The position numbers were made by a program, and so were the translations under genes. The notes beneath the pieces were generated by a model. That model made no database searches. It was not told the origin of the DNA and saw nothing but the letters and a program-made list of their open reading frames with translations. From NCBI GenBank assembly GCA_963759775.1, contig CAVXAH010000001.1:104787-142681 (forward strand): a stretch of DNA of 37,895 bases, read 5' to 3'. This document shows positions 7,013-7,130 of the stretch, in pieces. Numbering within the stretch: the first letter of the stretch is position 1; every line of letters starts with the position of its first letter. This stretch comes from an uncultured bacterium (GTDB lineage Bacteria; Patescibacteriota; Minisyncoccia; Phycocordibacterales; Phycocordibacteraceae).

Positions 7013-7125
7013 CCCGTTAGAAATAGGACGCGGACGCAAAAATATTGCGGCCGAACCCTATTCGATAAAAGCTGGTAAATAATCCCGTATCACGACCCCG
7101 ACAGCGTCCGCGATTTCTAACGGGA
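7013..7125 (-). mobile_element. MITE-like short element A (113 bp), same termini as the GIY-YIG cassettes
   Basis: Termini are CCCGTTAGAAAT (7013-7024) and ATTTCTAACGGG-A (7113-7125). Internal GCGGACGC/GCGTCCGC extends the stem. TTCAT flanks both ends (7008-7012 and 7126-7130). Confidence 0.7.
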
Positions 7126-7130
7126 TTCAT
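7017..7130 (-). CDS. element-spanning micro-ORF (37 codons) MNPVRNRGRCRGRDTGLFTSFYRIGFGRNIFASASYF
   Basis: The frame is open from the duplicated ATG (7128-7130) to the TAA inside the distal terminus, 4 nt before the hpf ATG. The peptide is conserved with that of element C. Confidence 0.4.
   Translation of the reverse strand: MNPVRNRGRCRGRDTGLFTSFYRIGFGRNIFASASYF

Follow-up and report, generated by a model that had tools for sequence, protein, structure and literature searches.

The stretch of DNA analysed here (the window) comprises 37,895 nucleotides of an uncultured bacterium of the Phycocordibacteraceae (Patescibacteriota; Minisyncoccia; Phycocordibacterales; assembly GCA_963759775.1, contig CAVXAH010000001.1, positions 104,787 to 142,681 of the forward strand). 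A search for both termini detected exactly five copies of one mobile element in the window, with 10 terminus matches against 0.6–2.6 in shuffled sequence. The five copies had a common layout, ATGNN-TCCCGTTAGA at the left end and TCTAACGGG-ATG at the right end, where the right-hand ATG was the start codon of a host gene. Two copies of approximately 280 bp carried an open reading frame (ORF) for a 94-aa GIY-YIG nuclease, intact in one and frameshifted in the other. The other three were hairpins of approximately 120 bp, each with a micro-ORF that began at the left-hand ATG (ATG1). We consider it probable that these micro-ORFs are part of hairpin copies, themselves non-autonomous, in a family of mobile elements of very small size that borrow the ATG of the host gene. 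The short copies and their host genes were as follows.

7013..7125, minus strand: short hairpin element A, with ATGAA duplicates at 7130-7126 and 7012-7008
7017..7130, minus strand: micro-ORF A, which opens at the duplicated ATG and is closed after 37 codons by a TAA located 4 nt ahead of the host ATG
6653..7012, minus strand: host HPF/S30AE gene (Pfam)
7387..7502, minus strand: short hairpin element B, with ATGAG duplicates at 7507-7503 and 7386-7382
7391..7507, minus strand: micro-ORF B, closed by the terminal TAA after 38 codons
7162..7386, minus strand: host YggU/DUF167 gene (Pfam)
30972..31087, plus strand: short hairpin element C, of the A subfamily, with left flank ATGCG (30967-30971) and right flank ATGAC (31088-31092)
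30967..31083, plus strand: micro-ORF C, closed by the terminal TAA after 38 codons
31088..31450, plus strand: host gene for a DoxX-like membrane protein (sub-threshold Pfam match, 21.1 bits vs. a cut-off of 23.6)

Measured from flank to flank, the short elements spanned 7010-7130 (−) for A, 7384-7507 (−) for B and 30967-31090 (+) for C. In each of them the frame opened at ATGNNTCCCGTTAGA and closed at the TAA within TTCTAACGGGATG, 4 nt before the host ATG. A preliminary description of the locus had proposed these micro-ORFs, and ORF listing and translation confirmed their coordinates, their lengths of 37, 38 and 38 codons and the position of the TAA. In the interiors only the ATG frame was open, the two other forward frames being closed. 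All three elements folded into long hairpins (−48 to −52 kcal/mol, z-scores −2.7 to −5.0), and in the fold prediction the closing pair of the stem included the A of the host AUG. The interior of element B was unrelated to those of A and C, and its ATG1 overlapped the TGA stop of an upstream glutaredoxin-like gene (7504-7749). Judging by its differing flanks, the target duplicate of element C has diverged. The open frames in the window were only suggestive, since shuffled interiors remained open 21–24% of the time and the relatedness of A and C left two independent events. Their significance therefore derives from the family-wide analysis alone. The two long copies lay upstream of the short ones, with the following features.

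4307..4311, plus strand: left ATGAA duplicate (ATG1) of long element L1, within the 3' end of murA
4312..4588, plus strand (4307-4591 with the flanking ATGs): long element L1, TCCCGTTAGAGAT…ATCTCTAACGGG, with a frameshifted GIY-YIG ORF
4589..4891, plus strand: host gene hyp4589, function unknown, beginning at the re-created ATG(AA); no Pfam match
4977..4982, plus strand: TATAGT, −10-like box 7 nt upstream of the ATG1 of L2
4990..5274, plus strand: long element L2, nuclease ORF MNPVRDNNMCYVYV…KRYLKNRLKRFLSLTG closed by a stop codon, intact, 94 aa (MNPVRD…RFLSLTG and stop)
5271..5813, plus strand: host def, peptide deformylase (Pfam)

The nuclease ORF of L2 started in the left ATGAA duplicate (4990-4994), the element proper occupied 4995-5270 (4990-5273 with the flanking ATGs), and the TGA stop (5272-5274) overlapped the ATG of def (5271-5273). 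The preliminary description had claimed that the nuclease is in frame with the upstream ATG and that its TGA overlaps the host ATG. This was correct for L2 but not for L1, in which one extra base (a +1 frameshift) after …EKYL, near the 3' end, removed the conserved C-terminus and joined the nuclease ORF in frame to the host ORF 4589-4891, giving a predicted N-terminal extension of 95 aa. The left repeat of L1 also supplied the TAG stop (4318-4320) of murA (2995-4320, plus strand), whose final residues, …NESR before the stop, are element-derived.

The sole match in the window at the gathering threshold of Rfam 15 was a group I intron outside the elements (RF00028, 7805-8095, plus strand, 58.5 bits vs. 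a gathering cut-off of 50), approximately 300 bp away from them. ARAGORN found no tRNA in default mode; when long introns were allowed, it predicted a tRNA-Asn(GTT) at about 7844-8142 (plus strand) with a 225-nt intron at position 35. The intron boundaries given by RF00028 and ARAGORN disagreed by approximately 40 nt.

Start-codon insertion and target duplication

The family was surveyed with two pattern scans of contigs from one genome per species, with at least 120 loci each; all family counts given here cover these loci and the window. The scans demanded perfect termini of 10–12 nt and a right-hand ATG. The 10-nt ends TCCCGTTAGA/TCTAACGGGA were thus imposed by the search and are no test of shared termini. 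At least 288 copies (121 long, 167 short) were found in approximately 240 genomes, most of them of the ultra-small bacteria of the candidate phyla radiation (CPR)/Patescibacteria. Hosts were overwhelmingly CPR bacteria, among others Saccharibacteria, Kaiser-, Nomura-, Yanofsky-, Wolfe- and Jorgensenbacteria. Copy lengths were strictly bimodal (100–135 and 265–295 bp), and the identical two size classes were seen in loci fetched independently of the element. The interiors of short elements were unrelated between subfamilies. An origin of the short copies as internal-deletion derivatives of the nuclease gene was rejected, as it was true for only 1 of 167. Perfect termini also occurred in bins labelled Omnitrophica, Planctomycetes, Gamma-, Delta- and Zetaproteobacteria, Desulfobacterales and Bdellovibrionales (loci L008, L032, L062, L063, L073, L079, L129, L133, L150, L158, L163, L168, L180 and L194), which would reflect either horizontal spread beyond the CPR or mis-binned CPR contigs.

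For approximately 87% of the copies the position was precisely that of a long ORF's start codon. ORFs of 100 aa or more began at the right-hand ATG in 126/147 short copies and in 90/102 long ones, compared with 7.7% of control ATGs. The left end was preceded by ATGNN in 205 of the 288 copies, and in 89% of these the two bases after the ATG were the same on the left and on the right (44% expected by chance).

Orthologous loci allowed empty and occupied sites to be compared. We fetched 46 close homologues of the def gene of the window with their flanks. The empty site TATACTgcgccacATGAAAGAAATCGTGCAAGA was present in approximately 40 of the def orthologues, in the context TATACT-N7-ATGAAAGAA, while the occupied site of the window read TATAGTgcgcggcATGAA-element-ATGAAAGCGATCGTGCAAGA, i.e. 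ATGAA-element-ATGAAAGCG. This comparison proved the duplication of ATGAA. A short element occupied the same spot at the def start of locus L248, and a copy of any kind was present in just 6 of 47 related loci. Presence/absence polymorphism among relatives was found not only at the def start but also at the starts of HPF, YggU and hyp4589. Orthologous HPF starts were mostly empty (…ATGAACATCACCATCAAA), with elements of other subfamilies in loci L248 and L265 and an A-like element in L253. The YggU start was also occupied in loci L248 and L120, and the orthologous hyp4589 starts were either empty (ATGAAATC…) or held a long element; as with HPF, most relatives had no element at the YggU and hyp4589 starts. 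Altogether, occupied starts of these four genes were found in loci L248, L253, L265, L192, L151/L275 and L120. Since some of these occupied starts held different subfamilies or the other size class, the shared positions point to recurrent independent insertion at hot spots and not to inheritance. Tandem or nested copies were also found, in which the ATGAA re-created by one element had served as the target of the next (L014 5898-6281, L017, L154).

These genomic comparisons establish that the element is mobile and inserts at (A)TGNN, mostly ATGAA, and that the copies which survive are located almost only at start codons. The exact length of the duplication may be shorter than it appears. In several copies (L031, L070, L161, L043, L219) the left flank was GTGAA or GTGGA and the right flank began with ATG, which suggests a 4-bp TGNN duplication with the terminal A provided by the element, rather than a 5-bp ATGNN duplication. 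The terminal A of the element would then turn a GTG start into ATG. A different left flank, (A)CTTG instead of ATGNN, recurred in loci L023, L028, L059, L140, L178 and L239 and mismatched the right flank.

Positions 11–13 of the inverted repeat varied among the 121 long and 167 short copies, yet were 93–98% Watson-Crick paired, with few G-T pairs. In the long copies the covarying positions altered two residues of the nuclease, the sixth from its start and the fifth from its end. That pairing was kept despite these changes of the protein argues for a DNA-level signal, either a hairpin or an end-recognition signal.

The short hairpins could instead have been domesticated as structured RNAs that regulate the genes downstream, in the manner of thermosensors or attenuators. 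Their termini are conserved across phyla, their folds are stable and they always lie immediately 5' of a gene, as such regulators would. However, no Rfam family matched the elements at gathering or relaxed thresholds (best relaxed matches over elements A and B at E = 8–9), the interiors shared nothing between subfamilies, and the host genes (def, HPF, yggU, DoxX-like) were functionally unrelated. The patchy distribution among close relatives, with the 6 in 47 loci mentioned above, and the almost purely Watson-Crick stem pairs, as expected of a signal acting at the DNA level, also speak against regulation by RNA, which we regard as very unlikely.

A nuclease gene without its own start and stop codons

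The only ORF of the long copies encoded a GIY-YIG domain (Pfam PF01541, residues 9-79 of 94 aa, E = 2.5e-17) and no second domain. No transposase of the DDE, HUH, serine or tyrosine class was encoded. The consensus of 39 copies, read from ATG1 to the overlapping TGA, was MnPVRd…Y.Yv…YTG.T.dLrkRf..H…YyE…RE.yLKsGMGKRylkNRlKrfl..sLTG, with the fuller stretches Y.Yvl and liYyEac…DA in the middle, before RE.yLKsGMGKR. The catalytic residues Y, Y, R, H, E and N were kept in the 39 intact copies. The first five or six codons (NPVRD) and the last five or six (LSLTG) were the 13-bp terminal inverted repeat itself, and the gene takes its start codon from the left duplicate. In 53 of 57 frame-intact copies it stopped at the TGA of the right-hand aTGA, which the right duplicate supplies as a consequence of the ATGA target.

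At the other end, 43 frame-intact copies kept ATG1. Among the 39 of these that were scored, 18 had no in-frame ATG, GTG or TTG between ATG1 and the GIY motif. In contrast, an internal ATG shortly ahead of the motif was present in all 14 frame-intact copies with a decayed left ATG (Fisher p = 3e-4). From this contrast in dependence, the host-derived ATG1 is the functional start in many copies. Hijacked initiation, as put forward in the preliminary description, is thus well supported.

The initiation signals in front of ATG1 fit this use. A TANNNT box resembling a −10 element peaked 6–7 nt upstream of ATG1, in 59/205 copies as compared with 6–8 per position, which indicates that roughly a quarter of the insertion sites belong to predicted leaderless genes, def included. 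Together with the TATACT-N7 spacing of the empty def sites, this peak bore out the earlier statement that the original initiation signals now stand before the ATG of the element. In the predicted leaderless transcripts the 5'-terminal AUG would now belong to the element; for L2, the TATAGT box predicts a leaderless transcript beginning at ATG1. Shine-Dalgarno-like motifs were rare upstream of both the left and the right ATG (32/205 and 19/205), and the loss of a Shine-Dalgarno sequence before the host ATG, which had been taken as an argument for coupling, therefore carries little weight. In the Kaiserbacteria-like genomes (L241-L286, upstream of def, and also family-wide) many genes showed a TATACT-type −10 box exactly 6–7 nt before the ATG and no Shine-Dalgarno sequence, a pattern that would imply widespread leaderless translation in these organisms.

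[quoted passage not shown] Ssn nucleases (CDD cd10448, GIY-YIG_unchar_3) have 94 aa and a single GIY-YIG domain; they bind to a hairpin repeat and site-specifically cleave single-stranded DNA (ssDNA) just upstream of it, but are inactive on dsDNA and RNA. In Neisseria this repeat is the NTS, CGTCATTCCCGCG…CGCGGGAATC (Chenal et al., Nat Commun 2025, PMC11893778). Ssn genes are typically flanked by hairpins, with hundreds of gene-less copies per genome, and the same authors described the repeat-gene-repeat arrangement as IS-like and drew the analogy to REP/RAYT and IS200/IS605, in which a small nuclease acts on ssDNA hairpins (PMC11893778). The element described here likewise combines a single-domain GIY-YIG gene of approximately 94 aa, located between hairpin-forming inverted repeats, with gene-less copies. 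The palindrome cores are similar as well, …TCATTCCCGCG…CGCGGGAATGA… in the NTS and …TTCATCCCGTTAGA…TCTAACGGGATGAA in the CPR element, although the resemblance of the TCCCG…CGGGA core with its adjacent (T)CAT to the NTS is only a lead. In a tblastn search the nuclease matched the NTS-flanked ssnA-type locus of N. gonorrhoeae with 38% identity over residues 10-74 (E = 6e-4), but yazA of B. subtilis (UPF0213) matched equally well (37%, E = 2e-4), and the PDB match was 1zg2, also of UPF0213 (E = 1.8e-4). The SRM consensus HGTCWYN(0-2)YYVSBRHN(0-5)WNVSBRGN(0-2)RNCYNB had no match on either strand of the window. The gonococcal ssnA-type gene (NZ_CP119142.1, 1881113-1882510; locus L321) was unannotated and seemingly frameshifted near its 5' end, and the record, although labelled a plasmid, is 2.17 Mb long and evidently a chromosome.

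The differences from Ssn systems concern architecture and location. In Ssn systems whole hairpins flank the gene, whereas in the CPR element the gene lies inside one split 13-bp repeat that encodes its own N- and C-termini. NTS repeats form intergenic clusters linked to natural transformation, whereas the CPR copies occupy start codons, where ATGNN is duplicated. The main text of PMC11893778 mentions neither CPR bacteria nor start codons. By analogy with the Ssn nucleases, the GIY-YIG nuclease would mobilise the element, probably by acting on single-stranded hairpin DNA.

MITE/IS pairs (e.g. Correia elements) and REP/REPIN-RAYT systems share with the CPR element gene-less palindromic copies that have the termini of a coding copy, a target duplication, a patchy distribution and co-transcription with neighbouring genes. 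They differ in that the CPR protein is a hydrolytic GIY-YIG nuclease instead of a DDE, HUH, serine or tyrosine transposase, and in that the CPR element inserts at start codons and its ORF lacks both a start and a stop codon of its own. To our knowledge the coding copy (approximately 280 bp) is also far smaller than any IS, IS200 having about 700 bp.

Like the free-standing and intron-encoded GIY-YIG homing endonucleases (I-TevI, Seg proteins), the element is a selfish GIY-YIG gene that limits the harm to the interrupted host gene. In some introns the ORF continues the reading frame of the upstream exon as a fusion, and the use of host expression signals by the CPR element is analogous to intron ORFs read from the upstream exon. 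In contrast to homing endonucleases, the CPR nuclease has no DNA-binding domain (16.5 bits against the NCBIfam group I intron endonuclease model TIGR01453, cut-off 56) and no single cognate site, as at least five unrelated genes were hit in the window and many elsewhere. Its insertion also produces a target duplication, whereas homing by double-strand-break repair yields none.

Rickettsia palindromic elements (RPEs) are mobile hairpins tolerated in coding regions, where they are read in frame in the host protein. They too are palindromic repeats of small size that persist at positions which translation has to cope with, but in-frame read-through is almost absent in the CPR element (1–2/31), in which translation is proposed to end and restart. 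The literature searched contained no start-codon-inserting GIY-YIG elements and none of these CPR repeats; its coverage was incomplete, and an earlier description is possible. The insertion into start codons and the borrowing of a start and a stop codon appear to be new; these features, the split hairpin, the ATGNN duplication, the phase-biased short copies and the CPR distribution were all absent from PMC11893778 and the other literature searched.

Reading frames of the short copies and translation of the host gene

The ATG1 frame was followed in 127 short copies that kept ATG1 (103 sequence clusters). It met an early stop in 78 copies, the terminal TAA in 35 and the overlapping TGA in 12, and ran into the host gene in 2. 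The frame was therefore open in 49/127 copies, as compared with 12.5 ± 3.3 in shuffles. In the first 106 copies, the other five frames were open in 8–17 cases vs. 42 for frame 0. The excess of open frames persisted in every GC class and after cluster weighting. As only 1 of 167 short copies was a deletion derivative of a long one, this bias is not a coding relic.

The openness of the frame depended on where it would end. The lengths of the 127 copies fell into all three phases (61/35/31). The frame was open in 35/61 copies of the phase leading to the terminal TAA, in 12–13/35 of the phase leading to the overlapping TGA and in only 1–2/31 of those in frame with the host gene (p = 9e-8 and 7e-4). 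A second test used all 166 short copies and measured the open run backwards from the right terminus, in the interior only. The median run was 57 nt in the TAA phase, 33 nt in the TGA phase and 30 nt in the in-frame phase, with 60, 29 and 8 of the 166 interiors fully open, respectively (TAA vs. in-frame p = 2e-13). The difference between the TAA and the in-frame phase remained after aggressive clustering to 58 groups (p = 8e-5). Even among the 78 early-stop copies, 46 had an internal ATG-initiated ORF that ended at the terminal TAA or TGA (22.9 ± 3.9 in shuffles). Counted together, 116/166 short copies had some ATG-initiated ORF with such an end, which started at ATG1 in 47/127.

This pattern bears on whether selection concerns the frame or the encoded peptide. 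That the micro-ORFs encode functional micro-proteins could be argued from the A and C peptides, which agreed in 28/37 positions despite one 3-nt indel, as had been reported earlier, and from the motif ..NRIGFGR..ASASYF, which recurred in five copies from four genomes and whose few variable sites were third codon positions. The corresponding 21-nt motif AATCGRATAGGGTTCGGYCGY of the A/C subfamily was located at 7043-7063 (−) and 31031-31051 (+) in the window and in loci L033, L075 and L091. However, it also forms a small hairpin (CGAA-TAGGG-TTCG), and constraint on the nucleotides accounts for its conservation equally well. The relatives L055 and L077 changed phase downstream of ..RIGFGR.., the 49 open peptides had nothing in common except the residues that the inverted repeat encodes, and 61% of the copies had an early stop. 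The excess of synonymous third-position differences described earlier was not recovered: A and C differed at 8/3/10 first, second and third codon positions, no clear excess, and substitutions within the subfamily were flat over codon positions (e.g. 13/15/12 and 13/9/13). We therefore give almost no credence to functional micro-proteins. The earlier proposal of selection on the reading frame or on the peptide survives in its first part, given the excess of open frames (49/127) and its phase bias, and fails in its second.

A further possibility is an intron-like removal of the element from the RNA, by which a single AUGAA would be restored. Seamless excision would be feasible through the flanking direct repeat, and a genuine group I intron lies approximately 300 bp away. 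Against this, the element is too small, lacks a ribozyme signature and carries a nuclease ORF that needs the flanking ATG and TGA; in addition, the phase-dependent depletion of stops indicates that ribosomes read the element. Removal from the RNA is accordingly extremely improbable.

In the explanation that we favour, borrowing of the host ATG, the autonomous form would be an element of about 280 bp that consists of one single-domain 94-aa GIY-YIG gene. The left duplicate retains the host promoter and initiation context, often a predicted leaderless 5'-AUG, and is used as the start codon of the element; the right duplicate restores the host ATG. Ribosomes that start at the borrowed ATG would enter the element and melt the terminal stem in which the host AUG is buried. 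In the favoured configurations the overlapping TGA, or the terminal TAA 4 nt upstream, would stop these ribosomes, and termination-reinitiation would allow translation of the host gene. Selection would act on where translation ends, beside the host ATG and out of frame, and not on the peptide. Termination-reinitiation functions at 4-nt overlaps and very short gaps, and is nearly abolished at approximately 20 nt (PMC10666635; PMC6728339). Coupled gene pairs (ATGA and TAANNNNATG) have the same geometry, a 4-nt TGA/ATG overlap or, in the short copies, a stop 4 nt upstream, and such overlaps and short gaps support reinitiation experimentally (PMC6728339, PMC10666635). In the CPR element, in contrast to these pairs, a parasitic insertion or an ORF without meaning takes the place of the operon partner as upstream cistron, and the coupling is predicted. 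The comparisons of genomes establish the architecture, the target duplication, the position of the copies at start codons, the nuclease ORF's use of ATG1 and the scarcity of stops in particular phases; that coupling of some kind, by reinitiation or by unfolding, occurs is our inference.

Alternatively, translation into the element might only unfold the terminal stem, or be irrelevant, with the host gene initiating independently at the re-created AUG. In a variant of this explanation, RNase III would cut the hairpin and leave a short unstructured or leaderless 5' end, the open-frame bias being a by-product. The rarity of Shine-Dalgarno-like motifs is compatible with it, as these organisms may rely little on them, and so are the long, stable stems of the short elements and the host ORFs, which were intact wherever the stop lay. 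Early stops never occurred before codon 7, so the left stem arm is always traversed. Each ribosome from ATG1 would hence melt this arm, which may be enough for many copies. This alternative does not, however, predict the phase signal (60 vs. 8 fully open interiors) or the finding that copies in frame with the host gene nearly always contain a stop. We hold it to be rather unlikely, though it deserves serious consideration.

Several observations weigh against the borrowed-ATG explanation, in particular against its reinitiation step. The early stops in 78/127 copies (61%) lay 15–108 nt (median 78.5 nt) before the host ATG, which is too far for termination-reinitiation, and host ORFs were no less intact behind early-stop copies than elsewhere (85% vs. 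88–100%). Termination beside the host ATG is therefore favoured but not obligatory. A difference in age between open and early-stop copies was rejected as a cause, as the perfect terminal-repeat length was equal (13.1–13.3 bp). Open frames showed no significant association with leaderless-looking sites (trend, p = 0.14). The shuffles and the clustering leave some shared ancestry in the statistics, one loose cluster containing 104/166 copies, and degenerate and non-ATG copies are under-sampled because the scans demanded perfect termini and a right-hand ATG. As to mobility, we know of no GIY-YIG enzyme that acts as a transposase, and a hydrolytic nuclease by itself cannot account for integration.

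Coupled re-initiation, as proposed in the preliminary description, is accordingly retained as a probable selected tendency on the strength of the comparative statistics, and abandoned as an obligatory mechanism in view of the early stops and the intact host genes behind them. In its strict form the earlier model also foresaw that in-frame stops would be infrequent and indel lengths multiples of three; the stops in 61% of the copies and the spread of lengths over all three phases contradict both.

A more far-reaching possibility, to which we lean only tentatively and with somewhat more doubt than confidence, is that this is the smallest known autonomous bacterial mobile element. At approximately 280 bp, it would have hairpin ends and an Ssn-type ssDNA nuclease, take its start and stop from the duplicated (A)TGA, be a start-codon specialist across the CPR/Patescibacteria, leaderless genes included, and return ribosomes to the host gene by termination-reinitiation. 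If true, it would represent a new class of transposon and a new route to harmless gene insertion.

If the borrowing of the host ATG is true, it would be a compact natural answer to the question of how a parasite can settle in the translation start of a gene without killing the gene. The element would take the promoter and start codon of the host and re-create the host start codon, and its right end would offer stops in two phases, 4 nt before the host start or overlapping it. It would likely provide a selfish, mobile context for the recently found Ssn ssDNA hairpin nucleases in a very large, poorly studied section of the bacterial tree, and it may yield very small programmable pairs of hairpin and nuclease. 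Hundreds of CPR genes would be predicted to be mis-annotated, with wrong starts or fused ORFs, and the occupied start codons would constitute a natural test bed for leaderless initiation and termination-reinitiation with the reduced ribosomes of these bacteria.

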